A DNA stretch of 64,000 nucleotides from Candidatus Kuenenia stuttgartensis (GTDB lineage Bacteria > Planctomycetota > UBA11346), in NCBI GenBank assembly GCA_945876185.1, contig CAMCMZ010000011.1, forward strand, positions 3,275 through 67,274. The letters are read 5' to 3'. This document shows, piece by piece, positions 1 to 52,169 of the stretch (positions are counted from its first letter, which is position 1; every line of letters begins with the position of its first letter). Both the position numbers and the translations under genes were made by a program. The notes beneath the pieces are model-generated. The model did no database searches, was not told the origin of the DNA, and was given only the letters and a program-made list of their open reading frames with translations.

Positions 1-54
1 TGATGTGATCGAATCACGCCCATTCTTGAAACATTCCCACCGGAAAATCCAACA

Positions 55-154: not shown

Positions 155-162
155 TGTGTGAG

Positions 163-921: not shown

Positions 922-1016
922 GGCTGCCCCCGGCGGGATTTTCCGCCAGGGAAAGATGGCTCCGCAAACCCGGATCCGCAACCCCGCACCGGGATCAGGA
1001 ATGGCCCAGCCGTGAA

Positions 1017-2255: not shown

Positions 2256-2299
2256 GATTGACCTTTACGGTTGATCAATGACGTAATGCGACGAATTCA

Positions 2300-3298: not shown

Positions 3299-3300
3299 TC

Positions 3301-4545: not shown

Positions 4546-4605
4546 GGCGGTCTTCCGGAAACGGTGGTCGGGACGAGGCCCGGCACCCGGACCTCATACG
4601 GATGT

Positions 4606-5094
4606 TCAGCCGGCGGCGAGCTTCTGCAGCCACTCGCCGGACAGGCGGTAGCTCGTCCAGGCGCTGGTCGGCGTCGCGCCGAGGGTCTCGAAGAACTCGA
4701 TCGCCACGGTGTTCCACAGCAGCACGGTGAACTCGACGCGGCCATACTGGCGCTCGACCGCGATCTTGGCGATGTGGCGCAGCAGGTGGGTGGCGATGCC
4801 GAGGTTGCGGTGCTCTTCGCGCACGTAGATGTCCTCCAGGTACATCCCGCGCTTCGCCGCGAAGGTGGAATAACTCTGGAAGAACACGGCAAATCCGACC
4901 GCCTTGCCGTCGAGCAGGGCCAACACCGGCTCGATCACCTTGTCCGGCCGCGACAGTTCCGCCCGCAGGCTGGCCACGCTCGACTGGCTGGGCAGGCGCT
5001 CATACGCAGCGAAGGCCGCGATCATCTCATGGAGGATCTCGGCATCGTCGGCAGTCGCCATCCGGATGACCAGGCCAGGCACAGCGTGCTTCAC
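4606..5094 (-). CDS. GNAT family N-acetyltransferase
   Basis: GNAT core LEDIYVREEHRNLGIATHLLRHIAKIA (acetyl-CoA binding region) with a diamine-acetyltransferase-like layout. The start is ambiguous: GTG 5094, ATG 5061 or ATG 5142. Confidence 0.75.
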   Translation of the reverse strand: MKHAVPGLVIRMATADDAEILHEMIAAFAAYERLPSQSSVASLRAELSRPDKVIEPVLALLDGKAVGFAVFFQSYSTFAAKRGMYLEDIYVREEHRNLGIATHLLRHIAKIAVERQYGRVEFTVLLWNTVAIEFFETLGATPTSAWTSYRLSGEWLQKLAAG

Positions 5095-5251
5095 GGGTTC
5101 TCCTCGCGAGGCGCATCCAACGCCGGAGCCGGGGTGGGTCAAGCGTAGCGTCGGGCTGCACGCGTCGGAGTTTGTGCCAGACCACCTGCGGCCGCGGCGT
5201 TGAACCTCAACGGCTGCGCCGCACCATGCGTTCGCTGATCAAGGAGTCTGC

Positions 5252-8204: not shown

Positions 8205-10541
8205 CTACCGTTCCACGCCCTGGCTGATTTTTTCCAGGTGATCTGCCATCTCGGCAAGGCGACGGGCGAGGCTGAGGACCTGGTTCGCGCCCTCGGCGGT
8301 GCCACCGACGGCTGTCGTGACCGCCTGGGCGTCGCTGGCGATGCTGCGGCACCCGTCCGCAGCATGCGCGACCTGGCGGCCAATCTCCTGCGCGGTGGCG
8401 GTCTGCTGTTCGACGGCGGCGGCGATGCCGGCTTGGATGCCGTTGATGCGGTCGATGACCTCGGCGATGCGTTTGATCGCGGCCTGGGCGCCCTGCATTT
8501 CACCTTGAATCCCGCTGACGCGGCTGGCGATGCCGTTGGAGGCCTCGGCCGTCTTGCGGGCAAGCGCCTTGACCTCGTTGGCGACCACGGTGAAGCCGCG
8601 TCCGGCCTCGCCGGCGCGGGCGGCCTCGATGGTGGCGTTGAGCGCGAGCAAGTTGGTCTGCTCCGCGATGCTGGTGATCAGCTTGGTGACCTTGCCGATT
8701 TCGACGCCGGCCTCGCCCAGGCGGCCCATGGTGCCGGCCGCGTCGGCGGCCAGGCGCACCGCTTCGCCGGCGATCTGGGCCGCTTCCGTGGCGCTGGTGC
8801 TGATCTCGCGGATGCTGGCGCCCATCTCTTCCGACGCCGCCGCAACCGACGAGATGTCGCGCCCGACGCTGCTGCTGGCCTCGGCGCTCTTGGCGGCGCT
8901 GTCGCGCGAACGGCCGGCCTCGCTGGTGACCTGGCCGCTGGTGCTGGTGAGCTGCTGCGCCGCCTTGGCGAGTTCCCCGGTGCTGGCCTGGACCGTCGCG
9001 ACCATGCCGCGCAGGCGTTCAGCCCCGGCCTGGGCCTCGGCTTCGCTGGTGAGGATGGCGCTGGTGATCTTGCGACCGATCAGAAGGATGACGCCGACCG
9101 CGACCAATCCGACCACGACCAGTGAAATTGCCGACGACAGGCTATGGAAAGCGACGCTGCTCATCGCTCTTTCCAGGGATTTCCCTGACTGGGCAAGGTG
9201 TTCACCGACCTGCCGCACCACCTCGGCCCCGGTTGCAGCGGCAGCGGTGGCAGCAGCGCCACGACTGATCCGGGCGCGTTCGACCGCGAGGGCGGCCTCG
9301 ATGACCCCGCCTTCGGCAAGCAGGGTCTTCTCGACCTCGGGTACCAGCACCACGACCTTGGCGACCAGTTCGGTATCAGTCGGGCGATTGAGGCCGGACA
9401 GGCCGGACGAACAGACCTTCAGCACGCGGTTCAATTCAGCGAGCGAGGCTGCGACCCGGCGACGCAGATCGCCAAGTCTGTTTTCACTGCCGCCGACCTG
9501 GGCCTGGAGGGCGGCGCTGACCAGATCCTGGGCCCGGTCGTTGACCGCGCCGGCGGCTGCTGCCACTCCGGCGACAGCTCCCAGGCTGCGCGAAGCGGCC
9601 GCGATGGCGAGGTCGGCCTTCACCACCGCCAGCGCGAGCGGATCGATCGACTCGCTCAATCGGTTGAGGCCTGCATCAATGCTCTCTTGCAGGGTTTTCG
9701 CCGCCTTGGCGCAGGCGGGTTTGGCCTCGGCCGGAGCGTCGGTGGCGAGTGCGGCGGCGCGCAAGGTCAGAAGACCCGTCTCCTTGTCACTGTAGCCGGT
9801 CTCCAATCCATCGATGATCGCCTTGAACTCGGGATCAGCGACCACCGATCCGGACTGATCGCGCAAGGCCTCCAAGGCGGCCTTGAAGCGATCGTTGAGC
9901 GGATTCAGGCGGAATCGGCTTTCGATCGCGAAGACCTGCGCCACCAGGCCGCGCATCTCGGCCAGCTTTTCCCGCGCGATATGCAATTCGCGGATGCGTT
10001 TCCAGCCATCGCGGCTGCGCTCCTGCGCCTGGGCGAGCGAGGCCTGCGCCTCGCCGCGAGCCTTGGTCATGGCCGTATCCAGGCCGGCGCAGCCGTGCTG
10101 AATTGCATCGTTGGACTTCTTCAAGGCCACCAGGGCGGTCGCCATGCGGCCGGTCGCATCCAGGCGCGCCGATTCAGCCGTGTGGCGCGAGGCGAGCACG
10201 CGGCCGAGATCCACCAACAGATCGTCGGGGATGCCGGGCTGGATCCGTTTGAGTTCGGCCAACCGCGCTGAACCCTGATCCAGGGCATTGCGGAGCTCGG
10301 AATCCAAGCTCGCCAAGGCCGCAGTCGTCTCGCAGGTCGACATCGCCGCCGCGCTGCCCAGGGCGCGTTCGACCGTCTGGGCCAAACTTGCCAGCGCGGC
10401 CTGCATCGGCTGGTCGTGGCGGATCACCGTCTGGGTCTGGACCCGCACGATCACGGAGGCAGCACCACCCACCACCAGCACCAGGGCGAGAGCGGCGATG
10501 AATGCGACGATCAGCTGCCGCAGGCGCTGACGGATGCTCAT
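8205..10541 (-). CDS. Methyl-accepting chemotaxis protein with a large helical sensor domain
   Basis: The C-terminal signalling hairpin is [37 protein letters not shown]. Two TM helices flank a region of ~400 aa. It starts 25 nt downstream of the solute-binding protein gene. Confidence 0.9.
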
Positions 10542-10566: not shown

Positions 10567-11727
10567 TCAGGGCTTCAGAGCGGCGGTGGGCTTGGCCTCG
10601 CCACCGCCGACCTGGGTCAGGTAGACCTGGGACAGGGCCTGGTGGTTGTCCTTGGTGAAGGTCACCGACACCCCGCCAACATCAGCTTTTTGCAACGATT
10701 CCAAGGCGGCGACCAAACCGGGACGGGAAAGGTCCTTGCCGGCCTTGTCCAGGCCGGTGATCAGCACGCGGCCGCCGAGGTAACCTTCCAGGCTGCCGTA
10801 AGTCGGCTTGGCTGCCGTATCGACCGCCTTCAGTGCAGCTTGGAAATCCTTGACCAGCGGAATAGAGGCATCGGCCGGCGATGGCACGACCTGCGAGATG
10901 ATCAGGCCATCCGCGTCGGCGGCGAGTTCGCTGATCAGGCTTTCGGTGCCGACGAACGAGATGGTGGCGAACGGAACTTTCAGCCCGGTGCTGCGCGCCT
11001 CCTTCACGAAGGCGGCGATCGGCTTGTACGGCCCGACCATCACCACTGCGTCGGGCTGACCGGCGAGGATCTGCGCCAGGCCAGCCTTCACCGCCACGGT
11101 GTTGCGTTCGAATGTGCCCTTGGCGGCCAGGGCCATGCTGCGCTTGGTCAGGGCCTTCTCGGTGCCGCTGAGTCCGGCTTGGCCGAAGCTGTCGTTCTGG
11201 AAGAACACCGCGATCTTCTTCGCCCCCAGATCCTTGGTCAGGCGCTCGACCAGCAATTCGGTCTCGTCGTCGTAGCTGGCGCGGACATTGAATATCCACG
11301 GATTGACCGGCTTGCGGAACAGCCCGGCGCCGGTGAACAGGCCGACCAGTGGCACCTGCTTTTCGGTGATCACCGGGATCGCCGCCTTGCCGGTCGGGGT
11401 GCCGACGTAGCCGGCGAGGCAGAATACCTTGGATTCCTCCAGCAGTTTCAGCGTCCCATCGACGCACTGGTCGGGATCGTAGCCGTCGTCGACCGCGATC
11501 AGCTTGAGCTTGCGGCCATGCACGCCGCCCTTGGCGTTGGCTTCGTCGAAACAGGCGCGCAGGCCGAGGTTCATGTTGGTGCCCAGCCCAGCGGCCGGAC
11601 CTTTGAGCGCGGCGCATTGGCCGATCAACAGTTCGGTGTCACTGACGCCGTCGGCGGCAGCAAGGGTGCCGACGGCGAGCGTGACCGTCATGACAAAGGA
11701 CAGGATGGGGGTCAGGAGGTTGGGCAT
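10567..11727 (-). CDS. Periplasmic solute-binding protein, LivJ/LivK (branched-chain amino acid, Peripla_BP_6) family
   Basis: It has a signal peptide ([27 protein letters not shown]). Family-typical segments are [36 protein letters not shown] and LAGYVGTPT. No ABC permease or ATPase gene is adjacent. Confidence 0.85.
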
Positions 11728-11880: not shown

Positions 11881-13728
11881 ATGACCGCTTCCAACGCTGC
11901 GTGCTGCCCAAATTCTTCCTGCCCTTCCCTCCTTCCGGCCCTGCTCGGCATCGCCGTCGGTGCGGCCCTGCCGGTCCTCCAGGTCGGAGGTGGCACCGGC
12001 TGGATCCTCGCCGGCGAACTGGTCGCGTTGGGTCTGGGTCTGACCATGTGGATGCGCTGGCAATCACGGCGGTCGGCAACCCGTGCCACCGACGTGCAAG
12101 CACTGGCCGTCGCTGCTGACTCGGTAGCTGGCTCGGTAGCTGGCTCGGTAACAGGCCAGGCAACCGGCCCCAGCAGCCCGGCTGCGCTGCGCGTCGGCGC
12201 GCTCTCGCTGCTAGGCACCAGCAGTGAACTCATGGACCGCGCTGAATTGACCACCGAACACGCAGGAAAAGTTGCAGAAAACGCCAAGCTGGCCAGCACC
12301 GGTATCCAGTCGGTAGCGGCCGCCGCAGAAGAGATGGCGGCCTCAGTGAAGGAAATCGCCGCGTCTTCAGCGCGGGCCTCGGTGGTCAGCGCCGATGCCG
12401 CCGCGCGCTCGGCCGAAGTCGATGCCGCCGTGCAGCGCCTGGCCACCAGTTCATCCGCGATCGGCTCGGTGGTCCAGACTATCGCCTCGATCGCCGGCCA
12501 GACCAATCTGCTGGCGCTCAACGCCACCATCGAGGCTGCCCGCGCCGGCGAAGCCGGACGCGGCTTCGCGGTGGTGGCGAGCGAGGTCAAGGCGCTGGCG
12601 CAGCAGACCGCCCAGGCGACCCAGGATGTCGGCAAGCGCATCGCCGCGATCCAGCAGGACACCAGCGCCGCTGCGGCAGCCGTGGCCGCGATCAGCACCC
12701 TGATCAAGGAACTCGACGGTCTGCAGCAGTCGGCCGCCGGGGCTGCCGAAGAACAAGCCGCGACCACCAGCGAGATGACCCGGTCGATCTCCGATTCCGC
12801 CACCGGCGTGCAGCACATCGCCAGCGAGATCGCCACCATTGCGGTTGATGCCAGGATCTTCTCGATGTCCGCCCTGAAGGTGAATGAGGCCGGACGGGAA
12901 ATGACCGCGCAGTTGGCCGCCCACCGGACTGACGACCACGGACTGATCCCGACAGCGGTCGCCGACAAGGCGATCCGCGCCCATCTCGCCTGGCGTCTGC
13001 GCTTGCTGGCGGCAACCATCACCGGTCAACCGATCGACCGCACCAAGGCCTGCGACCACACCGCCTGCGTGCTGGGCGCCTGGATGAAGTCCGTCGACGC
13101 CAACATCGCCGGGCACCCCACCTTCAAACAGCTCGATGGCCATCACCGGGCCTTCCATGCCGAAGTCGGCCGGATCATCGATCTGCTGGGCGCCGGCAAG
13201 ATCGACGAGGTCCGCCGCCAGTTCGTCGAGGGCGAATTCGTTCGACTATCAGCCGCCGTGGTGGGCGACCTGGCGGAACTGCGCCGCGACGACGATGATC
13301 TTCATGGTCGGATCAACTTCGCCTGGCGCGACGCCTACGCCACCGGCCACGCCGCCATCGACGGCCAGCACCGCGAACTCTTCCATCGCGCTGGAGACCT
13401 CTACCTGGCGATGCAAAGCGGCGATGGCCAGGCCAAGGCGAAGGAGCTGCTCGACCATCTCACCGCCTACGTGCAGACCCACTTCCACGACGAAGAGGCC
13501 ATCATGGCCAAGGCCGGCTACACCGACCTTCCCGCGCATCAGCGCCTGCACCAGGACCTCGTGCGTCAGGTGATGGAACTCTACGCCAGCATCAAACGCG
13601 GTGAACCGCTCAAAACCCTGGACGTCAGCGCCTTCCTCAGCCGCTGGCTGAGCGAGCACATCCTCAAGCACGACCACGCCTACATCGGCGCGCTGCGCGG
13701 GGCGGGACTCATCACGGCTCAGAAATAA
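11881..13728 (+). CDS. Chemoreceptor fusion: MCP signalling domain + CZB zinc-binding domain + hemerythrin domain
   Basis: There are two N-terminal TM helices with almost no loop between them. The MCP hairpin is [40 protein letters not shown]-type motifs are HLAW...CVLGAWM...HHRAFH. Hemerythrin motifs are [33 protein letters not shown] and [10 protein letters not shown]. Confidence 0.9.
12121..12156 (+). repeat. 12-nt tandem repeat x3 inside the chemoreceptor linker
   Basis: The units are tcggtagctggc, tcggtagctggc and tcggtaacaggc, encoding [12 protein letters not shown]. Confidence 0.9.
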
Positions 13729-33175: not shown

Positions 33176-36100
33176 ATGGGATTCGCCGGAAACCTACGGA
33201 CCTTGTCGCTGGGCGAGGTGCTCCAGACCCTCAACCGCATCCAAGCGACGGGCACCCTGAAGCTCGCGTCGTCGGACGGTGGCCGCGAGGTCTTCTTCGA
33301 CAAAGGCGAAATTATCGGCGTCGGCTACCGGCCCGGATCAGAGCGTCAGGCCCTGCTGCGCCGGCTCATCCTCGAAGGCACGATCTCGCCTGAAGACGCG
33401 GCGAACATCTCGTCTGACGGCCGCGACGACCACATCGTCGCCTCGTTGCTGGACGACGGCATCATCAATCCCGCCGACCTCGCCGAGGCGCAGCACCGCC
33501 AGAGCGAGGACGAACTCTACAACCTGACCACCTGGGAGCACGCCGACTTCGTCTTCCACGACGCCGGGCCAGAAACTCCCGAGGTTGAGGCGCAGATCGC
33601 CTCCGCGCGCACCGTGCCGATGACCATCCCGCTGAATTCGCTCCTGATGGAGGCCGCGCGCCGGCTTGACGAATGGGACCGGCACAAGCTGGTGATCACC
33701 CACGACGAGATCATCTTCGGCCCGGCCGAGGGCCACGAGGCCGACCTGGCCAAGGCGGCCGAGGAATACCCGGCCAAGGCGGTGGTGCCGCTGGTCGATG
33801 CGGTGCGCACGGTGGGCGAGATCATCAGCGACTGCGTCGCGACCCGGCTCGACGTCTACGCGGTACTGGCGGAACTCTACCAGGCAAAACACCTCGCCCT
33901 GCTGTCGCGCGAGGACATCATCTACCATGGCGACTACCTGGTCAGCCAAAGCCTATGGGCGAAGGCGGCCAAGCTCTTCCGTCAGGCCCTGGCCGAGGAC
34001 GCCGCCGACACCGAGACCACCGCCAAGCTGGCGAGCTGCCTGGAAAAAGTAGGCGGCGGTCCCGAGGCCGCCGCGTGCTACGGCCAGCTCGCGCTGGCGC
34101 ACCTGGCTGACAGCCGGCCCGATCAGGCCGCTGATTTGGCGCGCAAGGCGATCAACCTGTCGCCCGACGACCTCCACCTGCGCCTCAGTCTGGTGCGCTG
34201 CCTGCTCGGCCAAGACGACCACGCCGGCGCGATCCTGGAACTGCGCGAACTGGTGGTGCGCTACCAGCACCTCGGCCAACTTGAGGACGCGCGCGGCACC
34301 TGCCTCAAGATCCTCGAAATCGACGGCAAGGACGTGCAGGCCCGGCGCGAACTGGCGCGCATCTATTCCGAGGCTGGCAACGACCCCGACAGCGAGGACG
34401 TGGTGGTCTGCGTCGGCTGTGGCCAGGTCAACCACCGCGAGGCGGCGAATTGCGAGAAATGCAAGGCATCTTTGCACCTGAGCTGCCTGTCGTGCGGCCG
34501 GGTGGTCGGGGTGTCGGACCGCATCTGCATCTTCTGCGGTGCCGATCCGCACAACCGTTCGCAGCGCGGCCAGCGGCGCGAGGCCGGTGGCAGCCCGGCG
34601 ACCTCGCGCGTGATCAGCCCAGAACACGTGCGCAGCGCCGTCGATTCGGCTATCGCCGAGGCCGCAGCCTCGGCGGCGGGTGGAGTAGGTGGAGTGGGCG
34701 CAGTGGGAGGAGGCAGCGGACTCCAGCCCAAGGTGCTGGCCCCGGGGCAGCGATTCCGCAATGAACTCGAAGAAAACATCTCCAAGTCCAGCCTGGCCGA
34801 GGCCGAGGGCGACGTGCAGCTTGCGCTCGACCACTGGAAGGCCGTGGTCAAGATCCAGCCGGAAAGCCCCGAAGTGCAGGCGCGCCTGCGCCATCTCGAG
34901 GCGCTGGTCCACGACGTCTACATCGAAAAAGAGATCGAACGCGGGCACCAGCTCAAACGGGTGCGCCGGCTATGGGCGGCCAGCAAGGCCTATCGCAACG
35001 CCCTGTCCGGCCTGACCAGCGACGACCCACGCGTGCCGCGCCTGCGCGAGATCCTCGCCGCGACGGTGCGCAACCAGCAGATCATTGCCGTGGTCTATGC
35101 CGCCGGATTCCTGGTCCTGCTCGCCGGGGCCTATGTGGTGGCCAAGCCCTACCAGGTCATGCGCAACTTCCGGCGCGACGTGACCGAGGTCGAGGCTTGG
35201 GTAAGCGAACGTGAAAATCTTGACGCCCGCTCGTTGATCGGCACCAAAGGCGACGTCGACCGCATCCTCGACGCCGCAGAGAAGCTGCCGTCGAGTAAGC
35301 GGACCGAGGGCAAGCGCCTGGCCGATGATCTCGAAGCGCGCTTCCGCATCGCCCGAATCAGGAAGGCCGCCGCCGCACGCGAGGACATCGGCAAGAGCCT
35401 CGACCGCGAGGATCTGGTCAAGGCGGCGCAGGGCCTGCACGAGTACCGCCAGGTCTTCAAGGACGAGGGGGGATCGCCGGCGATCATCCACCTCGGTGAA
35501 CGCCTGACCGCCCTCAATACCCAGCGATCGTCCCGCGAGACGCAGCTCCAAGACGCCCCGGTGCGCCTCGCCGCGGCAGAGGTCTCTGAGCAGGAGGGCC
35601 GCCTGGCCAAGGCGTTGTCCGACTACCGCGGCCTGAGCCAGAGCATCAGCCCTGAGGTCGCCGTGAAGGCGAAGGAATCGGCGGTTCGACTTGAGACGCT
35701 GGAGCGCGCGTTCCTCCAGGAATGGAAGAACGTCCTCGCCGGCACCGACCTGACCCGGATCGCCGCCGCCCTCGACGGGCTGGAGCCCAAGGCGAAGCAG
35801 TGGGCGCGCAGCGAAGAACTGGCGGCCCGGCGGGCCGAGGTGAAGCGGCGCCTGGATGGCGCTGCCAGCGCATTCCTCCTCCTGGCCGACAGCAACGATC
35901 CCGCCAGCCTTGAGACGTTCATCACCGCCCATGCCGGGACGCCGCAGGTCGAACCGGCGCGCACGAAGCTCGCCGCCCTGCGTCTGCGCGGCCAGGTGCG
36001 GGACCAGGCGGTCGCACGGTTCAACGGGTTGATGGAGCAGAAAGAGTGGGAAAAAGCCTGGCAGGCCGGGCGCGACCTGATCGCCACCCACGGTTCCGCC

Positions 36101-37360
36101 CTGCCCGCAGGAAGCGTCAAACTGCCGCTCGTGATCGAATGCTTCCCGCCCGGAGCAACCGTCAGGCTGGATGGCAGGAACCTCGGCCCGGCGCCGGTGG
36201 TGGTTACTTACTCGCCCGCCTCGCCCACCTCGCCCGGTGCGACGGGAGCGACCGGCACGGTCACCCTGGAACTGTCTGGGTTCATCCCGATCAGCCGGCC
36301 GCTCGCGGAACTGACGACAGCCTGGCGAACCAGCGCGGTCCTCGTGCGCCAGTCGCGCTGGAAGACCGACCTCGGCAAGCCGGCGTTCCTCGCCCATCCG
36401 CTCGCGCTTCCCAACGCAAACAGCGGTCTGCTGATCAGTTCGGGCGAGGCGCTCTGCCTGCTCGACGTGGCAGGAACGGTGCAGTGGCGCGTCAGCCTGG
36501 GTGGCGACGAGCTCTCCGATCCGGGCCGCAGCCGCTACCAGCACGTGCCCGTCCTCCTGCCCGATGGTCGTCTGGTGGTAGGTGCGCCGGGGCGCGGAGT
36601 GGTGATCCTCGACCGCAACGGCCGTGAACTGCACCGCCAGTCCACCACGGCCCAGGTGCGTGGCCGGCCGCTGGTCTACGTCAACGATTCCTTCGGACCC
36701 GGACAGCGCCTCGCCTATGCCGCCGAAAGCGTTTCCAGCGGCGAACTCGGATCAGCTCCGACGTTCCGCTTTCCGCTCGACCGGCCGGCGCTCGCCGGCC
36801 CGCTCGCGATCACGCGCGGTCTGGACCAGATCCTGGTGGTGGTCACGGTCGACTGCCAGGTCATCGGTCTGGTCGAACTTGCCTCGACGAAACGGCCGGT
36901 CTGGAGCCTGAACCTGCAGGCCGGCGAGGTCGGCCAGCTGAATCCGCTTGGCAACGACGGGGCGCTGGCCGTGCTTGATGGCAGCCGCCTGGTCTGCCTG
37001 CAACTGCGCCCCGATGGGGCCAGCATCCGCTGGAGCCAGCAGCTGTCGGCCCCGGCGGTTGGCGAGCCGGCGGTCGCCAACGGCATCGTCTACCTCGCCG
37101 GCGGCCGGCGGGTGGAACGCATCGGCGTCGATGGTGGTCCGCTCGAATCGCTCCTGCTGCCTGCGCCCGCCTCGTCCCCTGCGGCCGCCCGTGACAACGT
37201 GGTCGCGGTCGGCTGCACCGATGGCACCCTCGCAGTCTTCCGTGCGGGCAAGCCGGCCTGGACGACGCCGTGCGGTGCCGCCGTCACCACCGTCGCGGTG
37301 ACCGCCGAGGCCGTCGTCGCCGGCCTGGCGAACGGCCAGGTCGTGGCATATTCCCCCTGA
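33176..37360 (+). CDS. Giant membrane protein: DUF4388(PATAN-like)-TPR-double zinc ribbon-TM-coiled coil-PEGA-beta-propeller
   Basis: The N-terminus MGFAGNLRTLSLGEVLQTLNRIQATGTLKL...VFFDKGEIIGV fits the DUF4388 pattern. TPR-like repeats follow, then CVGCG..CEKC..CLSCG..CIFCG (~34400-34560). The TM helix is IIAVVYAAGFLVLLAGAYVV (~35081-35150). A PEGA-like segment LPLVIECFPPGATVRLDGRNLGPAP lies at ~36121. The C-terminal PQQ/BamB-like repeats end ...ANGQVVAYSP. Confidence 0.8.
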   Translation: MGFAGNLRTLSLGEVLQTLNRIQATGTLKLASSDGGREVFFDKGEIIGVGYRPGSERQALLRRLILEGTISPEDAANISSDGRDDHIVASLLDDGIINPADLAEAQHRQSEDELYNLTTWEHADFVFHDAGPETPEVEAQIASARTVPMTIPLNSLLMEAARRLDEWDRHKLVITHDEIIFGPAEGHEADLAKAAEEYPAKAVVPLVDAVRTVGEIISDCVATRLDVYAVLAELYQAKHLALLSREDIIYHGDYLVSQSLWAKAAKLFRQALAEDAADTETTAKLASCLEKVGGGPEAAACYGQLALAHLADSRPDQAADLARKAINLSPDDLHLRLSLVRCLLGQDDHAGAILELRELVVRYQHLGQLEDARGTCLKILEIDGKDVQARRELARIYSEAGNDPDSEDVVVCVGCGQVNHREAANCEKCKASLHLSCLSCGRVVGVSDRICIFCGADPHNRSQRGQRREAGGSPATSRVISPEHVRSAVDSAIAEAAASAAGGVGGVGAVGGGSGLQPKVLAPGQRFRNELEENISKSSLAEAEGDVQLALDHWKAVVKIQPESPEVQARLRHLEALVHDVYIEKEIERGHQLKRVRRLWAASKAYRNALSGLTSDDPRVPRLREILAATVRNQQIIAVVYAAGFLVLLAGAYVVAKPYQVMRNFRRDVTEVEAWVSERENLDARSLIGTKGDVDRILDAAEKLPSSKRTEGKRLADDLEARFRIARIRKAAAAREDIGKSLDREDLVKAAQGLHEYRQVFKDEGGSPAIIHLGERLTALNTQRSSRETQLQDAPVRLAAAEVSEQEGRLAKALSDYRGLSQSISPEVAVKAKESAVRLETLERAFLQEWKNVLAGTDLTRIAAALDGLEPKAKQWARSEELAARRAEVKRRLDGAASAFLLLADSNDPASLETFITAHAGTPQVEPARTKLAALRLRGQVRDQAVARFNGLMEQKEWEKAWQAGRDLIATHGSALPAGSVKLPLVIECFPPGATVRLDGRNLGPAPVVVTYSPASPTSPGATGATGTVTLELSGFIPISRPLAELTTAWRTSAVLVRQSRWKTDLGKPAFLAHPLALPNANSGLLISSGEALCLLDVAGTVQWRVSLGGDELSDPGRSRYQHVPVLLPDGRLVVGAPGRGVVILDRNGRELHRQSTTAQVRGRPLVYVNDSFGPGQRLAYAAESVSSGELGSAPTFRFPLDRPALAGPLAITRGLDQILVVVTVDCQVIGLVELASTKRPVWSLNLQAGEVGQLNPLGNDGALAVLDGSRLVCLQLRPDGASIRWSQQLSAPAVGEPAVANGIVYLAGGRRVERIGVDGGPLESLLLPAPASSPAAARDNVVAVGCTDGTLAVFRAGKPAWTTPCGAAVTTVAVTAEAVVAGLANGQVVAYSP

Positions 37361-37365
37361 ACCTG

Positions 37366-37438
37366 ATCGCTTTCCCGTTTCATCCCCCGTTTCTTCGCCC
37401 GTGTCATCTCCCGCTCCTTCGCCTGTTTTTTTCGCCCG
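37366..37438 (+). repeat. Pyrimidine-rich tract with ~12-nt periodicity between the two giant genes
   Basis: The successive units are cgctttcccg, tttcatcccccg, tttcttcgcccg, tgtcatctcccg, ctccttcgcctg and tttttttcgcccg. The plus strand is almost devoid of purines apart from the terminal g of each unit. Confidence 0.7.
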
Positions 37439-37522
37439 TACTTTTACCAGGCCATCGCTTGTCCTGCCACTGCTCCTACGCTTTCTACGCCGCCTGCATC
37501 TCCTGCCGTCGCTGAGGATCCC

Positions 37523-40500
37523 ATGCTGAACCAGGTCACGGTCGACCACATCCAAACGGTCCACCAAAAGCGTCAGAGCGGCACCCTGTGGGTCGCTGGC
37601 GCCGGATTCCGCATGCGGCTGTGCTTCCAGGACGGCAACCCGGTCGCGATCGACCTCGGACGCGACAAGGAAGCGCTGCTTGCCGACACCTTCCTCGAAT
37701 ACCACAAGATCCAACCCGAACTGCACCGCATGCTTGGCGATGTGCTCGCCTCGGCCAAGGGCGGCGAGCATCATTCCCCGGTCACCGAATTCATCCGCCA
37801 GCAGCAGGCCGCCAGCGATGAGGAGATCACCCAGATTTTGCAGGCGATGGTCGAGGAAGCGCTTGTGCGCATTCTCACCGGCGAGGTCAAAACCATCCAT
37901 TTCAGCCCTGGCGAAGGCATCGAGGCCTTCGACTTCGAGCACAGCTCCTTGCGCATGCGCCTCGATACCAAGGTGCTGCTGAGCACGGTCGGCGCGCGGG
38001 TCGCCGAGGACGACGCCACCCGAACCGCCATCGGCACGGGGGCCAGCATCTTCATGCTCGCCGAGGTCGAGCACCCCTCCGCTAACCTGACGGTGTGGGA
38101 CAAAGGCGTCCTCGAATGGATCGATGGCCAGCGTACGGTCGACGACATCGCCACCGGCCTGCGTGAGCACACCATCCAGGTCGGCCACGTCCTGCGCCAG
38201 CTCGCCGCCAAGGGCATCATCCGACGGCAAGCGAGCACCAGTACCCGTGCACGTTTCTCGTTCGAGCAGACCCGCCCCAGTGCTGAGCCGTCAACGGCGG
38301 CGCGCGGAACCGCACCGGCGGCCGTGCCGGTCGCTCCCCCGCGGCCCGCCAGGCGTTCGCGCCCCCTGCTGGTGATCAGCTTGATCTTCATCCTCTTCCT
38401 TGCGGCCGGGGTGTGGTATTTGGTGAAGGAGTCCAAGGAGCGTGAAAGCGCGATCGAACGTCTGAACGCCGATGTCCGTTCCGCGATCGCCAGCCGCAAC
38501 TGGGACGGCAGCCGGACCCTGGTCAGCGAGGCAGAGCAGAAAGCAGGCTCCGACGTGGTGGCCAAAGAGCGCATCAAGAAGCTCCAGGCCGAGATCCAGA
38601 CGGCGCTCGCCAAGGAGACCGAGGAGATCCGCAAAGCCATTGCCGCAGATGATTTCGCCATCAAGACGCGCATCGATTCCCTGCCGGCCGAACTCGCAAG
38701 CGCACTCCAGGGCGAGCTTGCGGCCGAGAAGGAACGATTCGGCAAGCGCAGCGACAGCCTTGCCAACCAGGCCGACCAGGCCCTCGCCCACGATGGCCAT
38801 GCCGAGGTCGCGGCGCTGATCGCCGCCAATCCGGGCGCGGTGTCGGGCGAGGCCGCGAAGCGGCTGGAGAACTGGCGCACCTCGCGCCTGGGCCAGGCCG
38901 CCGCCGCCGGGCCGCTCGCGCGCCGCAGCGCCGCCATGGCTCTGGTCAAGGCGTCGAATCCGCGCCCGCATGAAAAGCAGCGCCTGACGGACATCGAACA
39001 GGACATCAACCGCCTCTACAACCGCACCGCCGACGATTTCCGCCGCCTGCGCACCGACGCCGATGCCGGCGCCTGGAAATCGGTGCTCGACGAGACCAGC
39101 CAGAGCGGTCTCGCCGACCTGGTGAAGGGCACCACCTTCGACAACGATCTCGCCGCCCTGCGCAAACGCTGCGACGGCGTGCGCGACGAACTGGCCGCCT
39201 ACCTTGATGGCCTGCCCGAGGTCGTGGCGAACGGTTCCGCCAAGCCTTTGGCCGACCGGCTTGCCGCAGGGGAAAAACTCAGCGCCACCTATCCCAAGGC
39301 CGCGAACGCCGCCGAAATCACGGGATCGGTCGACGTGCTGCGTCGCCTGGGCGAGATCCTGGGCAAGGCCACCGCCGCCGATCAGGTCAACGCGATCGAT
39401 CTCTGGCTGAAGGATGCGAAACTTGGTGAAGTCCTGACTGCGGCGGTAACTCGGAGGCGCGACGAACTCAAGGGCCTGGAGGCCTCGGCGCAGGCGAACC
39501 TCGAATCCGCACGTCGCCTGGTGGTGCAGAACGACCTCGACGGCGCATTCAAGGCGCTGGAGGCGTTCTTGTCCCGGCCCGAGATTCGCATCACCTCTTC
39601 TCGCGCGGCGGCGGAACAGCTCATCGCCGAGGTCAAGGCGCAGTTGGATGCGCGCAGCCGCAAGAACACAGATCTTGAAGCAGCGCTGAAGGCCGGCGAC
39701 ATCGCCAAGGCGCGCGCCCTGGCGGCCGAACTCGGCCAGAAAGATTTGCCGCTCCAGGTCGACAGCACCCCGGCCGGGGCCGAGATCCACCGCGACGGCA
39801 AGCTGATCGGGCGCACCCCGCTCGTCCTGCGCCTGTCGGCGGGTGAACGCAACGAGACCGTGTTCGAGATCAGGCTGAACGGCTATGTGCCCAAGCGCCT
39901 GCAAGGATCGAAAGCAGAGGACGGCTGGCGCCTGCGCGCGGCGCTCGAACGATCGCCCTCGGCCAGCACCGATCTCAAGACCGCGCTCAGTGCCAAACCG
40001 GCGGTTGTCGACGAGCGGGTCTGGCTTGCGGGCAATTCCCTCATCGCCTCGGTGGGCGTTGACGGCCAGGTCGTGCGCTTCGCCCTCGACTCGGCCGGTG
40101 GCGCGCTGTCGCAACCGGTCTATGCGGCGGCGGCCAAGCTGTCTGACGGCGTGTATTTTTCGACCCGCAACGGCTTCGCCCTGCGCCTGGCCGCGAACCA
40201 GACCCAGCCCGAACGGGTGGCCCTGGGGGCGCAGAGCGACCTCGCCCCGGTGCTCTACCGCAGCCCGCTGGTCATCGACCGCAACTACCTGATCGCAGCC
40301 GGTACCGACGGCATCCTGCGCGCCGTGAACCTGGCCAAGCCGCTCGACACCTGGGTGGCGACCGCCGGCGATCCGCTCGCCTGCGCGCCAGTCCTGCTGG
40401 GCGAATCGCTGCGCCTGGTCCGCCGCAATGGTCGCCTGGAGGCGCTGTCCGCCGACGACGGCAGGATCCAGGCGCGTGCTGACCTCGGTCAGGCCGTCGT

Positions 40501-40903
40501 CGCCGCCTGGGCCACGCCCAAAGGCTTGGCGGGCTACAGTGCCAACACCCTGTGGACCTGGGAGGACGAAAAACCTGAACGCGAGGAGTTGCCCGCCACT
40601 CCGGCCGTGGGCGGCCCGACCGCCTTCATCAGCAGCGGCGGCCGGGCCTTCATCCGCAACCGGGGCGACGCCGCCAAGCCGTGGATCGAGGCTGAACCCG
40701 GGCGGGTGCTCGACGCCAAGCCCACCGGTGAACCCGTGGCCTGGAACGGCCATGTCGCCGTCGCCACCGGCACCAGCGTCAAGGTGGTCGGGCCGCAGCC
40801 GTTCTCGTGCGAAACCGACGCCGACATGCTCGACCCGGTGGTGCTGAACGGACACCTCGTCATCATCGCCACCAACGGCCGGGTCTGGATCTATAAACCC
40901 TGA
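37523..40903 (+). CDS. Giant membrane protein, architectural paralog: DUF4388-like-TM-long coiled coil-PEGA-beta-propeller
   Basis: The N-terminus is QKRQSGTLWVAGAGFRMRLCFQDGNPVAIDL. The TM helix is LLVISLIFILFLAAGVWYLV (~38366-38430), followed by ~430 aa of Ala/Glu/Lys-rich helices. The PEGA segment is LPLQVDSTPAGAEIHRDGKLIGRTPLVLRL (~39745). The C-terminal beta-propeller-like repeats end ...TNGRVWIYKP. Confidence 0.8.
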   Translation: MLNQVTVDHIQTVHQKRQSGTLWVAGAGFRMRLCFQDGNPVAIDLGRDKEALLADTFLEYHKIQPELHRMLGDVLASAKGGEHHSPVTEFIRQQQAASDEEITQILQAMVEEALVRILTGEVKTIHFSPGEGIEAFDFEHSSLRMRLDTKVLLSTVGARVAEDDATRTAIGTGASIFMLAEVEHPSANLTVWDKGVLEWIDGQRTVDDIATGLREHTIQVGHVLRQLAAKGIIRRQASTSTRARFSFEQTRPSAEPSTAARGTAPAAVPVAPPRPARRSRPLLVISLIFILFLAAGVWYLVKESKERESAIERLNADVRSAIASRNWDGSRTLVSEAEQKAGSDVVAKERIKKLQAEIQTALAKETEEIRKAIAADDFAIKTRIDSLPAELASALQGELAAEKERFGKRSDSLANQADQALAHDGHAEVAALIAANPGAVSGEAAKRLENWRTSRLGQAAAAGPLARRSAAMALVKASNPRPHEKQRLTDIEQDINRLYNRTADDFRRLRTDADAGAWKSVLDETSQSGLADLVKGTTFDNDLAALRKRCDGVRDELAAYLDGLPEVVANGSAKPLADRLAAGEKLSATYPKAANAAEITGSVDVLRRLGEILGKATAADQVNAIDLWLKDAKLGEVLTAAVTRRRDELKGLEASAQANLESARRLVVQNDLDGAFKALEAFLSRPEIRITSSRAAAEQLIAEVKAQLDARSRKNTDLEAALKAGDIAKARALAAELGQKDLPLQVDSTPAGAEIHRDGKLIGRTPLVLRLSAGERNETVFEIRLNGYVPKRLQGSKAEDGWRLRAALERSPSASTDLKTALSAKPAVVDERVWLAGNSLIASVGVDGQVVRFALDSAGGALSQPVYAAAAKLSDGVYFSTRNGFALRLAANQTQPERVALGAQSDLAPVLYRSPLVIDRNYLIAAGTDGILRAVNLAKPLDTWVATAGDPLACAPVLLGESLRLVRRNGRLEALSADDGRIQARADLGQAVVAAWATPKGLAGYSANTLWTWEDEKPEREELPATPAVGGPTAFISSGGRAFIRNRGDAAKPWIEAEPGRVLDAKPTGEPVAWNGHVAVATGTSVKVVGPQPFSCETDADMLDPVVLNGHLVIIATNGRVWIYKP

Positions 40904-47884: not shown

Positions 47885-49771
47885 ATGTTCGAGTTGGTCT
47901 TCCTGAGCGGACCCAAGGCGGGAGTGGTGGTTCCGATCGACAAGCCGCTTGTGGCTGGTCGCAGCCCGGACTGTTCTCTTGAAGTTCCCGATCCGAACGC
48001 CAGCCGGCAGCATGCGCGCATCCAGATGGACGGGACCGGGGTCGTCTTCACCGACAACAACTCGTCCAACGGGACCTGGATCAACGACCAGCGCATCAGC
48101 AGCGTGATCGGCAAGCCCGGCGACGTGCTGCGCCTGGGCGAAACGAAGCTGCGCCTGCAGCAGCGCCAGGCGACGAACAATGAAGAGGTCGGCTCGAGTT
48201 CGGTCTTCGGCTTCAAGGAGGTCGAAGCCGACCTCAGCCAGTCGATCGTCCTGCCGGTTGCCGACGCGGCCCCGATCGAACGCGGCCCCGAGGTCATCGG
48301 CCAGCGCCTCGCCGCGGTGCTCAAGGTCTCGAAAGCCCTGGTCAACATCAGCAATCTCGACCAGGTGCTCAACGACATCCTCGACACCCTGTTTGAGGTC
48401 TTCCCCCAGGCCGACCGTGGCTTCATCATGCTGGGCGCCGAGGTCAGCCGGCTTGAGGCCAAGGCGATCCGCCAGCGCAATCCGCGCGGCGATGAACTGC
48501 CCACGGTGTCGAATTCGATCTGCCGCCGGGCCCTGACCAGCAAGAGCGCGTTCATCTTCAATGAAGGCGCGCAGAACGACTTCGACCAGGGCCTGTCGAT
48601 CGTCTCGCTCAAGATCCGCAGCGCGATGACGGTGCCGCTGATGGTCGAAAGCGAGATCCAGGGGCTGGTCCAGATCGACACGCCCGACCGCAACCGCGCC
48701 TTCGCCGCCGAGGACCTCGAACTCGCCCTCGCCATCGCCCAGACTGCCGCCATCGCCATCCACAACGCGAAGATGCTGAAGCGGCTGGAGCGCGAGACCA
48801 CCACGCGCCAGAACCTCTGCCGCTTCCTGCCGGGTCCGCTCGCCGAGCAGGCGATGGCCGGGCAGCTCGATCTCGGCCTCGGCGGCCGGACCTATCCGGG
48901 CACCATCCTGTTCAGCGACGTGGTCGGCTTCACCCGCCTCACCGAGTCGCTTCCGCCAGGCGAGGTCGTCGCCCTGATGAACGGCTACTTCGACCGCATG
49001 GTGCCGTGCATCCTACGCGATGGCGGCGCGATCGATAAATTCATCGGCGACGCGATCATGGCCTTTTGGGGCGTGCCGATCGATCGCGGCGATTCCGCCC
49101 TGCACGCCTGCGCCGCCGGGCTGGGCATGCAGATCGGCCTGATCGGCTTCAACAGCCTGCAGGCGGCGCGTGGCAAGACCCTGCTCAGCCACGGCATCGG
49201 CATCAACAGCGGGCCGGTGGTCGCCGGCAACATCGGTTCGTCGTCCTCGCAGATCAGCTACACCCTGCTCGGCGACACCGTGAACACCGCCTCGCGCATC
49301 GAGCACGCGGCAAATCCAGGGCAGGTGCTGATCGCGCACGACACCATGGAACAACTCGGCGGACGCGGCTTCGGTCTGCGCATGCCGCCGCTGAGCGCAC
49401 GCAACAAGAGCGAACCGCTCCAGGTCTTCAGCCTGCGCGGGCTCAAGCATTCCGGCGAAGAAGTCGTTCTCTACCTGCCTGCCACCTCGGGCCCGCACGC
49501 GGTGGTGCTGATCCGCCGCCTGTCCGACCTGAGCTTCATCGCGCTGCACCCGCAGGGCTGCGATCTGGGCGCGGCCGACCTGGTCACCGCGACCGCTGAC
49601 TGGCCCAAGGTCGTGCTCGGCCGGCCCCAGGTGACGGCGGTGCTGCCAACCCAGGCCGGCGATGGCCACCTGCTGCGCGGCCAATTCAAGCTCCCTGATG
49701 CGACCCTGGCCGGGCTGATTTCCAACCAGCCGCTGACCTGCCCGGTCGGTTGGGACGCGCTGGTGCGGTGA
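47885..49771 (+). CDS. FHA domain - GAF domain - class III adenylate/guanylate cyclase with an uncharacterised C-terminal extension
   Basis: The FHA domain is GRSPDCSLEVPDPNASRQHARI...SSNGTWIND and the GAF-like region is LKVSKALVNISNLDQVLNDIL. The cyclase core is ILFSDVVGFTRLTE...KFIGDAIMAFWG...GDTVNTASRIE. About 140 aa follow with no motif I can assign. Confidence 0.85.
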   Translation: MFELVFLSGPKAGVVVPIDKPLVAGRSPDCSLEVPDPNASRQHARIQMDGTGVVFTDNNSSNGTWINDQRISSVIGKPGDVLRLGETKLRLQQRQATNNEEVGSSSVFGFKEVEADLSQSIVLPVADAAPIERGPEVIGQRLAAVLKVSKALVNISNLDQVLNDILDTLFEVFPQADRGFIMLGAEVSRLEAKAIRQRNPRGDELPTVSNSICRRALTSKSAFIFNEGAQNDFDQGLSIVSLKIRSAMTVPLMVESEIQGLVQIDTPDRNRAFAAEDLELALAIAQTAAIAIHNAKMLKRLERETTTRQNLCRFLPGPLAEQAMAGQLDLGLGGRTYPGTILFSDVVGFTRLTESLPPGEVVALMNGYFDRMVPCILRDGGAIDKFIGDAIMAFWGVPIDRGDSALHACAAGLGMQIGLIGFNSLQAARGKTLLSHGIGINSGPVVAGNIGSSSSQISYTLLGDTVNTASRIEHAANPGQVLIAHDTMEQLGGRGFGLRMPPLSARNKSEPLQVFSLRGLKHSGEEVVLYLPATSGPHAVVLIRRLSDLSFIALHPQGCDLGAADLVTATADWPKVVLGRPQVTAVLPTQAGDGHLLRGQFKLPDATLAGLISNQPLTCPVGWDALVR

Positions 49772-50831: not shown

Positions 50832-52169
50832 GTGGCATTGTGGTGCCTGGTCGCTCCGGTACGTTCCGGCCCAGCCAGCCATCCGGCGGCACAAGGCCTG
50901 CGGTCCGTGACCACCTCCATCCCTAATCCGGCAACTTCCTCATTTGATGAGGATTTCCGCTATGGCCAGCTCGCCATCGAAGGCCGGCTGATCACGCCGG
51001 ACCAGTTCGACGTGGCGATGGACAAGGTGAAGTCGCTGGGCAAGCCACTGGCCGAGATCCTGGTCGACGAAGGCACCGTCGACGCCCAGACCTCCGACCG
51101 GCTGACCAAGGCGCTGAAGCGCATCCTGCGCGACGAGCGCGCCAAGTCTGAGGGCGGCGTGCTGATGAAGAAGCAGATCGGCGGCTATAAGCTGGTGCGC
51201 CGGATCGGCGAAGGCGGCATGGGCGAGGTCTACCTCGCGGAACAGTTGTCGATGCACCGCACCGTCGCGCTCAAGATCCTGCACAGCAAATGGGCCGACG
51301 ATGAGGAATTCCGCAAGCGATTCCTGCTTGAGGCGCGCGCCGCCGGCAAGCTGTCGCACCAGAACCTGATTTCGGTCTACGACGTCGGCAAATACCAGGG
51401 CTATTACTACTTCGCGATGGAATTCATCGACGGCGTCACCGTCGACGACATGATTCGCCACGACGGCGTGATCCCGATTGAAAAAATCATCGACATCTGC
51501 CTTCAGGTGTGCGAGGCGCTCGAATACCTGAGCCAGCACAATATCGTCCACCGCGACATCAAGCCGGCCAACGTGATGATCACCAAGGACGGGGTGGTGA
51601 AGCTCGGCGACTTCGGGTTCATCCAGTCGGTGTGGGACAACGAACTACTGCAGGAAGGTACGACCATCGGCACGCCGGACTACATCAGTCCCGAGCAGGC
51701 CCGGGGCGAACGCAACCTCGATGTGCGCAGCGACATCTATTCGCTTGGTGCGACGCTGTTCCACATGCTGTCGGGCCAGACCCTGTTCACGGGCTCATGC
51801 TCGGCGGTGATGCGCAACCACATCGAGACCGTGCCGCCCGACATCGGCAAGCTGCGCAAGGACCTGCCCAAGGACCTGATCCGCATCCTCCAGCGCATGC
51901 TGACCAAGGATCCGATCGACCGCTACCAGACCCCGGATGAACTCATCAAGGAGTTCGAGCTGCTGAAGCTCAACGTCGCCGGGGTCGAGGGCCAGCTGCC
52001 CAGTTCGCGCAGCCAGATCATGAACGTGATCAGCGCCGAGAAGGCCCGCATCGGCCAGCTCGAACGCGAAATCGCCAATGAACGGCAGCGGACCATCCTC
52101 TTCGCCGTCCTTGCCGGCATGGGCTGGCTCGCGGCGGTGGCCTTGCTGACGCTGTGCCTGGTCCGCTGA
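50832..52169 (+). CDS. Ser/Thr protein kinase, C-terminally membrane anchored
   Basis: Kinase motifs are GEGGMGEVYLA, VALKIL, HRDIKPANVMI, DFG and GTPDYISPE. The C-terminal TM helix is ILFAVLAGMGWLAAVALLTLCLV. The N-terminal ~60 aa resembles a T2SSE_N/MshEN-like repeat. The start is uncertain: GTG 50832 or GTG 50907. Confidence 0.85.
   Translation: MALWCLVAPVRSGPASHPAAQGLRSVTTSIPNPATSSFDEDFRYGQLAIEGRLITPDQFDVAMDKVKSLGKPLAEILVDEGTVDAQTSDRLTKALKRILRDERAKSEGGVLMKKQIGGYKLVRRIGEGGMGEVYLAEQLSMHRTVALKILHSKWADDEEFRKRFLLEARAAGKLSHQNLISVYDVGKYQGYYYFAMEFIDGVTVDDMIRHDGVIPIEKIIDICLQVCEALEYLSQHNIVHRDIKPANVMITKDGVVKLGDFGFIQSVWDNELLQEGTTIGTPDYISPEQARGERNLDVRSDIYSLGATLFHMLSGQTLFTGSCSAVMRNHIETVPPDIGKLRKDLPKDLIRILQRMLTKDPIDRYQTPDELIKEFELLKLNVAGVEGQLPSSRSQIMNVISAEKARIGQLEREIANERQRTILFAVLAGMGWLAAVALLTLCLVR

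Follow-up and report, generated by a model that had tools for sequence, protein, structure and literature searches.

The window analysed here, a 64,000-nucleotide stretch of Candidatus Kuenenia stuttgartensis DNA (contig CAMCMZ010000011.1, positions 3,275 to 67,274), carries two consecutive forward-strand genes, here called A and B. Their products are predicted to cross the membrane once and share an unusual order of domains: a PATAN (DUF4388) domain and a winged-helix-like domain on the cytoplasmic side, and helical repeats, a PEGA-type beta-sandwich and a BamB-like beta-propeller beyond the membrane. We show that A and B are real, selected and distantly paralogous genes, that B directly follows A in most of the related loci evaluated, and that a cheA-cheW gene pair directly follows B in about half of those evaluable for it. 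We tentatively argue that A and B form a heteromeric, non-enzymatic trans-envelope adaptor or scaffold of a chemosensory-type pathway, a reading that we hold to be possible but somewhat short of probable. The two genes and their domains, delimited with Pfam, orthologue alignments and AlphaFold 2 (AF2) models, are as follows (window coordinates, strand, description).

33176-37360, + strand: gene A, 1394 amino acids (aa), bitopic, with PATAN, winged helix, TPR, double zinc ribbon, transmembrane (TM) helix, helical repeats, PEGA and 8-bladed propeller in this order (open reading frame, Pfam, orthologues, AF2)
33185-33676, + strand: A, PATAN/DUF4388, residues 4-167 (PF14332, 86.6 bits, E = 1.7e-24)
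33701-33907, + strand: A, winged-helix-like domain, residues 176-244 (AF2 elements E180-183, H188-236, E240-242)
33908-34381, + strand: A, TPR array, residues 245-402, about 10 helices (Pfam TPR_19, TPR_14, TPR_2; AF2)
34397-34549, + strand: A, double zinc ribbon, residues 408-458 (PF12773; C412, C415, C426, C429, C437, C440, C451, C454)
34550-35065, + strand: A, disordered linker (residues 459-522) and juxtamembrane helical region (523-630) (AF2)
35081-35143, + strand: A, single TM helix, residues 636-656 (hydropathy peak 2.4; part of a long AF2 helix)
35150-36109, + strand: A, extracytoplasmic alpha-helical repeat region, residues 659-978 (AF2, pLDDT about 75-90)
36122-36340, + strand: A, PEGA-type beta-sandwich, residues 983-1055 (Pfam PEGA 17.3 bits; seven AF2 strands)
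36350-37357, + strand: A, 8-bladed BamB/PQQ-like beta-propeller, residues 1059-1394 (PQQ_2, 48 bits against 27.6)
37523-40903, + strand: gene B, 1126 aa, shorter paralogue with PATAN, winged helix, TM helix, helical repeats, PEGA and propeller, without TPR or zinc ribbon (open reading frame, Pfam, orthologues)
37544-38230, + strand: B, PATAN (residues 8-170) and winged-helix-like domain (171-236) (PF14332, 39.0 bits; hhalign to A 11-243)
38369-38425, + strand: B, single TM helix, residues 283-301 (hydropathy 2.68, conserved in 12 orthologues)
38432-39736, + strand: B, putative extracytoplasmic alpha-helical region, residues 304-738, longer than that of A (homology to the A helical region)
39737-39967, + strand: B, PEGA, residues 739-815 (Pfam PEGA 19.7 bits)
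39968-40900, + strand: B, BamB-like beta-propeller, residues 816-1126 (family profile against BamB structures, E = 4.5e-10)

Genes A and B and their domains

The window has the same sequence as a 93-kb metagenome contig in ENA. Its G+C content is about 67%, and at such values long spurious open reading frames (ORFs) occur on both strands, an example being an antisense ORF of 1160 aa that overlaps gene B. That A and B are real genes follows from the coding-type distribution of G+C over codon positions 1, 2 and 3 (0.73/0.48/0.84 in A and 0.69/0.49/0.83 in B), from their Pfam domains, from their many homologues and from purifying selection. Compared with the relative L087 (related loci are designated by L and a number), which is 87-89% identical, dN/dS is 0.16 for A and 0.18 for B; within A it is 0.08 for the cytoplasmic and 0.24 for the periplasmic half. 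The ORF of gene A opens further upstream, at TTG 33140, and since the N-terminus MGFAGNL is nearly invariant among orthologues, we take ATG 33176 as the start. The first-pass annotation, made from the sequence alone, had placed both ORFs on the forward strand at these coordinates with this same start, in agreement with the ORF calls and the conserved N-terminus, and its order of domains is borne out by Pfam and AF2.

The AF2 models of A were built from a 40-sequence alignment, and that of residues 1-640 has a mean predicted local distance difference test score (pLDDT) of 82. In the PATAN domain of A, the 122-position PF14332 model (gathering cut-off 25 bits) is stretched over residues 4-167, and AF2 places a four-helix insertion at 55-117 between beta-strands. 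This domain is the second most conserved segment of A, with a mean pairwise identity of 0.50, after the zinc ribbons with 0.63. All eight cysteines of the ribbons, arranged as two CxxC...CxxC knuckle pairs, are invariant in 19 and in 40 orthologues; the Pfam match (412-455) scores 27.2 bits with a PF12773 cut-off of 27.3, and AF2 models the segment as four short beta-hairpins. Pfam TPR matches fall at approximately residues 299-402, and Foldseek and profile searches match the array to OGT and consensus TPR proteins. The linker that follows the ribbons has pLDDT below 50 at 461-482 and 502-522 and leads into helices at 523-612, with 40% gaps in the family alignment. A profile search of the PDB matched only the TPR and propeller parts and gave no match for the PATAN or winged-helix (wHTH) regions; A and B as single sequences had no PDB matches, and Foldseek with the cytoplasmic model of A returned TPR proteins only.

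Scans of A and B with Pfam and other hidden Markov models (HMMs) detected no Pkinase, cyclase or classical helix-turn-helix (HTH) output domain and no Trans_reg_C or other DNA-binding HTH family. Pfam likewise gave no receiver (Response_reg, REC, at E <= 1), no signalling hairpin (MCPsignal, PF00015) of methyl-accepting chemoreceptors (MCPs), and no GYF, FHA or TonB_C match in either protein. The earlier statement that an HTH output domain is lacking holds for classical HTH domains, but it overlooked the winged-helix-like domain that follows PATAN in both proteins, for which hhalign aligns the region in A with B residues 171-236.

A cytoplasmic N-terminal wHTH followed by one TM helix and a periplasmic sensor is the layout of ToxR, and A and B might accordingly be membrane-tethered transcription regulators of the ToxR/CadC type, in which the winged helix after PATAN binds DNA under periplasmic control. 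The winged-helix-like fold is found in both proteins, B has a weak PaaA-like_N match, and the promoter region of A contains a perfect inverted repeat:

33020-33090, no strand assigned: perfect 22-bp inverted repeat in the divergent intergenic region between A and the upstream peptidase S66 gene (arms 33022-33042 and 33069-33089)

Folded as RNA, the repeat has an energy of -59.9 kcal/mol (z = -7.5); nothing like it occurs elsewhere in the window, and Rfam yields spurious miRNA-like matches only. However, it is already degenerate in L087, a relative of 89% identity. The wHTH is net acidic in orthologues, with net charges of -2 to -11 across 19 orthologues of A and 0 to -3 in B, and a study of PATAN proteins argues against DNA binding of the PatA type (bioRxiv 10.1101/2021.06.11.447907). 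Since the winged helix is acidic and matches no DNA-binding family, we regard regulation of the ToxR type as very improbable.

Each protein has one strong hydrophobic helix, whose position is kept within each family; summed over the B family, the net charge of the flanks is +22 on the N-terminal side versus +7 on the other. We propose an N-in/C-out topology from domain logic, in which the zinc ribbons, TPR and PATAN would lie inside and the PEGA and BamB-like propeller outside. The region after the TM helix had been described as a long coiled coil. The AF2 model of A instead shows about 12 helices there, 10-39 residues long and connected by short turns, an arrangement suggestive of helical hairpins or of a TPR-like region; in relatives, TPR_6 and YfiO match here (YfiO below threshold). 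These periplasmic helices are the least conserved region of A, with a mean pairwise identity of 0.25.

The AF2 model of A residues 625-1394 has a pLDDT of 88.5 and shows about 31 strands in the propeller, consistent with eight blades. Foldseek matches it to 8-bladed designed proteins (Cake8, template modelling score 0.81), to BamB (E = 4e-14, score 0.69) and to YxaL. The PQQ_2 match in the B propeller (15 bits) is below threshold and accompanied by a weak TIGR03300 match; this BamB equivalog family, with a cut-off of 285, gives 25.1 bits for A and 16.7 bits for B, partial matches only. The PEGA scores of both proteins lie below the PF08308 gathering cut-off of 20.8, while BLASTP aligns the two PEGA regions with one another and phmmer matches B residues ~730-790 to bona fide multi-PEGA proteins with E down to 4e-35. 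HMM support for the proposed domains is thus direct for DUF4388 in both proteins and for PQQ_2 in A, and sub-threshold for PEGA in both and for PQQ_2 in B, where phmmer, profile comparison, AF2 and Foldseek back the assignments. The resemblance to the sensor halves of Ser/Thr kinases seen in the first-pass annotation is confined to the PEGA domain, and Pkinase occurs in one of seven PEGA-repeat matches.

Paralogy and pairing of A and B

A and B share 29% identity over 217 aa at the helical/PEGA junction (BLASTP, E = 1e-10), and hhalign of the two family profiles gives a probability of 99.9% (E = 8e-36), in support of the paralogy proposed for them earlier. In outline, B is A minus the TPR, zinc-ribbon and juxtamembrane block. 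The A family comprises about 114 full-length orthologue clusters of 30-46% identity. In the GTDB species set, full-length A is found only in metagenome-assembled genomes (MAGs) of uncultured Planctomycetota, two of them labelled Ca. Brocadiaceae by depositors, and a metagenome scan with the A alignment gave just 4-5 further full-length loci. The B family has roughly 30-35 full-length representatives at 50% clustering in an exhaustive HMMER search. B orthologues were recovered by tblastn in loci collected through A and by the HMMER search; those downstream of A are 25-35% identical. B evolves faster than A, with 31% identity versus 42% for A in the same genome pair.

To evaluate adjacency, we counted the 25 related loci with enough downstream sequence, all from uncultured Planctomycetota. 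In 19 of them tblastn finds a B orthologue directly downstream of A, so that the expected co-occurrence of the two genes in other genomes is upheld. In a neighbour-joining tree of A, the pair is present in the deepest branches (L007, L021 and L022), so that the duplication, and B itself, are ancestral.

It is conceivable that A and B are independent tandem duplicates without a physical partnership and that their adjacency is a relic of the ancient duplication. That six loci have A without an adjoining B, that the spacer varies between 10 and 540 nt, and that B evolves faster and is without the TPR/zinc-ribbon block would all be in keeping with this idea. On the other hand, gene order is kept down to 27-31% identity for A and 25-28% for B, far past the usual decay of unselected gene order, and the complementary domains of the two proteins, B being A minus the recruiting block, are typical of heteromeric paralogue pairs such as GltG/GltJ. 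We therefore consider independence unlikely.

The two genes are separated by a spacer that had been called peculiar:

37361-37522, + strand: A-B spacer, 162 nt, pyrimidine-rich, ending in a GAGGA Shine-Dalgarno-like motif

The spacer is indeed pyrimidine-rich, but it is unstructured and variable in length, with no sign of a functional element. It folds worse than its own shuffles (z = +2.65), and in the comparison with L087 conservation is limited to its two ends, among them the ~40 nt proximal to the Shine-Dalgarno motif with GAGGA. No Rfam match, terminator or promoter-like site was found in it. In other lineages the gap ranges over 10-540 nt, and several relatives have gaps as short as 10-42 nt. 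A role as an RNA element was rejected on the grounds of the missing Rfam match, poor folding, poor conservation and variable length, and the spacer is an ordinary intergenic leader. As it contains no terminator or promoter-like site and the gaps in relatives are short, the gene arrangement makes it likely that A and B are co-transcribed.

In L022 (MAG SLQH01000419.1, 4443-12083) a single open frame of 2546 codons runs through the orthologues of both A and B, with an 18-codon bridge and a GAGG motif ahead of the ATG of B. We set this fusion aside as a Rosetta-stone link because of its conflict with the proposed topology and its occurrence in a single MAG; its probable cause is a stop codon that was lost or mis-called.

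Gene neighbourhood and possible roles of the A-B pair

All-against-all clustering of the gene neighbours of A over 27 loci, with tblastn checks, yields four recurrent neighbours: cheA-cheW, a peptidase of family S66, a prepilin-type N-methyl protein and UvrA. No pilus, Mgl or type II secretion system gene and no other cell-wall gene recurs around A-B in this clustering, and the type II secretion ATPase T2SSE is found in L005 only. Two of the recurrent neighbours are present in the window:

32077-32976, - strand: LD-carboxypeptidase (peptidase S66), divergent, upstream neighbour of A (Pfam)
31160-32137, - strand: prepilin-type N-methyl (DUF1559-like) protein (Pfam N_methyl)

In 8 of 15 evaluable loci, cheA-cheW directly follows B on the same strand. 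These loci fall into two separate clades of the A tree, the first (L004, L008, L010, L016, L019) being sister to the window lineage and the second consisting of L011, L012 and L017. Where it could be measured cleanly, the gap between B and cheA is about 70-170 nt; the cheA and cheW genes overlap each other. The encoded CheA has Hpt, dimerisation, HATPase and CheW-like domains and no REC. In none of the six loci without an adjoining B does cheA-cheW lie beside A. In the window lineage, a sulfate-assimilation (cys) operon with cysH, cysD, cysNC and sirohaem genes takes the place of cheA-cheW after B. The description of A-B as a kinase-less module is therefore true of the two polypeptides, but not of the locus in those eight relatives, although it does hold in the window.

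An association of PATAN with CheA was also found elsewhere. In Gemmatimonadota, soluble PATAN-TPR proteins are encoded in clusters with CheA, an independent association in another phylum; in metagenome loci that carry other distant PATAN proteins, a nearby CheA is rare (4 of 75). The Gemmatimonadota cluster, a conserved che-like cluster seen in L059 and about 20 other loci (e.g. L035, L052-L060, L078-L084), contains a pair of soluble PATAN proteins: it encodes CheA, two TPR proteins, a PATAN-TPR protein of 349 aa, a DnaA-type ATPase-domain protein of 658 aa and a PATAN-TPR protein of 554 aa.

To understand what A and B could do, we considered systems with comparable parts. PATAN is the output of chemosensory PatA-type regulators, which derive from chemosensory systems, and in Synechocystis PixE the PATAN domain alone suffices for binding the pilus ATPase PilB1 at its N-terminal domain and PilC at its N-terminal cytoplasmic domain, for membrane localisation and for phototaxis reversal (bioRxiv 10.1101/2021.06.11.447907). 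PatA itself binds the divisome proteins ZipN and SepF (PMC7380572), and PATAN genes tend to neighbour mglA/mglB (PMC4316618). Cyanobacterial PATAN-REC regulators of this type (PatA, PixG, PixE, LsiR) have in common with A and B an N-terminal PATAN with a helical insertion and an association with CheA/CheW systems; by analogy, PATAN in A and B may likewise be a protein-binding output at the inner membrane. A and B differ from them in having no receiver, in being integral membrane proteins, in their wHTH (both) and TPR and zinc ribbon (A), in an extracytoplasmic module of 700-800 residues, and in their occurrence in Planctomycetota.

In layout, the closest likeness is to GltJ and GltG of the Myxococcus xanthus Agl-Glt gliding machinery, bitopic ZnR/FHA proteins of the inner membrane through which a cytoplasmic polarity platform is connected with a periplasmic complex and outer-membrane parts; ZitP, a membrane protein with a zinc ribbon, regulates pili in Caulobacter (PMC11135422, PMC11761067). 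As proposed for A and B, GltJ/GltG are an N-in/C-out pair with non-enzymatic cytoplasmic adaptor domains, among them a zinc ribbon in GltJ, and flexible linkers before the TM helix. The analogy is one of layout only, the sequences being unrelated: GltJ/GltG carry GYF or FHA and a TonB-C-like periplasmic domain but no PATAN, PEGA or propeller, and no Agl motor or Glt genes lie near A-B. Polar landmarks of the FimV/HubP and ZitP type likewise cross the membrane once, joining a periplasmic domain that binds the envelope to recruitment modules of the TPR or zinc-ribbon kind in the cytoplasm, and they position pili, flagella or chemotaxis arrays. Their domains are, however, LysM and the FimV C-terminal domain, or DUF3426, and Pfam/HMM searches detected no homology to A or B. 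BamB (YfgL) shares the 8-bladed PQQ-like propeller fold, whereas the propeller of A and B is the C-terminal part of a TM protein and not a lipoprotein.

We argue from these comparisons that the cytoplasmic PATAN/TPR/zinc-ribbon face of the pair might bind a CheA/CheW kinase module and/or a motor of the PilB/PilC type, while the periplasmic propeller and PEGA domains could be held by, or report on, an envelope structure or partner. Anchored by the propeller/PEGA part and bound through the cytoplasmic face, A-B would position or gate cytoplasmic machinery rather than catalyse a reaction. Recruitment would fall mainly to A, whose cytoplasmic half is highly constrained, with B as a faster-evolving co-subunit. 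What points to such an adaptor is the architecture, the lack of catalytic and MCP domains in either protein, the paralogy, the adjacency and likely co-transcription of A and B, the link to cheA-cheW, the separate PATAN-CheA association in Gemmatimonadota, the pattern of selection and the literature on PATAN and on GltJ/GltG.

The cheA-cheW link could also be read differently, with A and B as a non-MCP receptor pair in which the propeller and PEGA sense a ligand or the state of the envelope and the PATAN-TPR face signals to CheA-CheW, replacing an MCP. In loci with the A-B-cheA-cheW string, there are no membrane or sensor-like proteins other than A and B, and in L004 the surrounding +/-10 kb contain neither an MCP nor a CheY gene. 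Extracytoplasmic parts made of a beta-propeller, PEGA or helices are typical of sensors, and evolution is faster in the periplasmic halves than in the cytoplasmic half of A, as is often the case for ligand-binding parts. Yet the two proteins contain no MCP signalling hairpin, HAMP or known CheW/CheA-binding domain, and one TM helix per subunit together with a disordered juxtamembrane linker of 40-60 residues would make poor signal conduits. Moreover, ordinary MCPs are encoded nearby in the window, and cheA-cheW is not adjacent in the window or in seven other evaluable loci. We find a receptor role of this kind decidedly unlikely; the variant that A-B is a new chemoreceptor-like input or array-organising module for CheA-CheW, with a PEGA/propeller sensor coupled without an MCP, seems to us slightly less likely still.

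The MCPs of the window are two genes (8205-10541, - strand, and 11881-13728, + strand) that flank a periplasmic binding protein gene (10567-11727), and one of them has hemerythrin and CZB zinc-binding domains; the organism thus has canonical chemoreceptors. As to L004, which carries A-B-cheA-cheW, its first part (1-5200) encodes type VI secretion components (IcmF/TssM, Hcp), a SprA-related protein and MreB, within 10 kb upstream.

The other recurrent neighbours bear on a further possibility, namely a scaffold of the cell envelope, of peptidoglycan or of division, in which the propeller and PEGA contact envelope machinery and PATAN contacts division or elongation proteins. In the window as in 18 related loci, the most distant included, the gene next upstream of A is the divergent LD-carboxypeptidase, of a peptidoglycan-recycling enzyme family. 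Further points in its favour are that the PATAN protein PatA binds divisome components (PMC7380572), that the nearest natural structural matches of the propeller are BamB proteins, and that distant relatives have weak BamD-like (YfiO) matches in the periplasmic helical region. However, enzymes of the S66 family reside in the cytoplasm and do not require a scaffold of this kind. The UvrA gene, too, is kept beside S66 (beyond it in 6 loci), which looks like inherited synteny. The likeness to BamB is at the level of the fold only, since TIGR03300 scores 25 bits where 285 are required and there is no lipoprotein signal; the YfiO matches are sub-threshold and generic for TPR; and no further cell-wall gene is recurrent nearby. 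An envelope or division scaffold therefore seems improbable. The prepilin-type N-methyl gene lies beside A or S66 in the window and in 8 other loci.

Returning to an adaptor of a chemosensory-type pathway, several observations weigh against it. Its mechanism and partners are deduced from context. No che, pil or mgl gene adjoins A-B in the window, and there is no CheA gene within its 64 kb. As UvrA and S66 are also kept nearby, part of the neighbourhood conservation is plain inherited synteny, and the adjacency of cheA-cheW could be inherited rather than functional too. The CheA next to B has one Hpt and no REC, which weakens a connection to pili. Pilus-type CheAs such as ChpA and PixL differ in this respect. 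B is absent beside A in L005, L006, L014, L018, L020 and L089. Finally, the positive-inside rule leaves the topology of the proteins unsettled, with K+R counts alike on either side of the TM helix, and the in-frame fusion in L022, if real, would clash with the proposed topology.

Wider family, significance and other features of the window

Apart from the A and B families, nine further proteins of 800-1270 aa match B in its PATAN or its PEGA/propeller region, all with an N-terminal PATAN and a C-terminal PQQ-type propeller, mostly with TPR and PEGA between them and none with a kinase domain. Their sources are other Planctomycetales, Ca. Schekmanbacteria and metagenomes, where they are annotated only as hypothetical, BamB or TPR proteins. 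These wider PATAN-TPR-TM-(TPR)-PEGA-PQQ proteins match B at E = 1e-15 to 1e-6 only, and differ from A and B in being shorter, without zinc ribbons and, as far as seen, encoded by single genes. Names given in the sources to members of the A and B families are all generic (hypothetical, DUF4388, TPR or BamB). In the literature on DUF4388, on PATAN, on PEGA in Planctomycetes and on PATAN with CheA/CheW, we found no account of the A/B architecture, so that neither publications nor annotation indicate an already described family. The parts of A and B are all known domains and analogues of their layout exist; the literature that we found has no description of a membrane-anchored, receiver-less PATAN pair whose ectodomain is of the PEGA/propeller kind and whose genes are linked to cheA-cheW but not to an MCP.

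PATAN domains are widespread. Work on them has been confined to the soluble PatA-type regulators of cyanobacteria, in which they steer pilus motors and cell division. More than 8000 DUF4388-annotated proteins have been counted, and PATAN proteins outside cyanobacteria are essentially unstudied (bioRxiv 10.1101/2021.06.11.447907). If A-B were a scaffold or receptor for CheA, it would show how planctomycetes tie the position or state of the envelope to their chemosensory and motility machinery, and would point to a general role of PATAN as a membrane-proximal adaptor. Planctomycete cell biology, with its polar budding and stalks, is poorly understood at the molecular level. As all carriers of A and B are uncultured, practical value is limited for now.

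Several other genes of the window deserve mention. At 7-10 kb downstream of A-B lie an FHA-GAF-adenylate/guanylate cyclase gene (47885-49771), which is syntenic in L087, and a Hanks-type Ser/Thr kinase gene (50832-52169); no link of either to A-B was found. Two genes, one for an HTH_3 (XRE-type) protein and one for a PRMT-like methyltransferase (of the protein arginine methyltransferase type), make up a low-GC island (29575-31117; G+C 0.56 versus about 0.67) that is also present in L087. A second low-GC stretch (2001-4000, 0.55) contains an ORF of 334 aa (2300-3304, - strand) with no Pfam match, and a gene for a 980-aa DUF2339 membrane protein (5252-8194) lies at extreme AT skew (-0.32).

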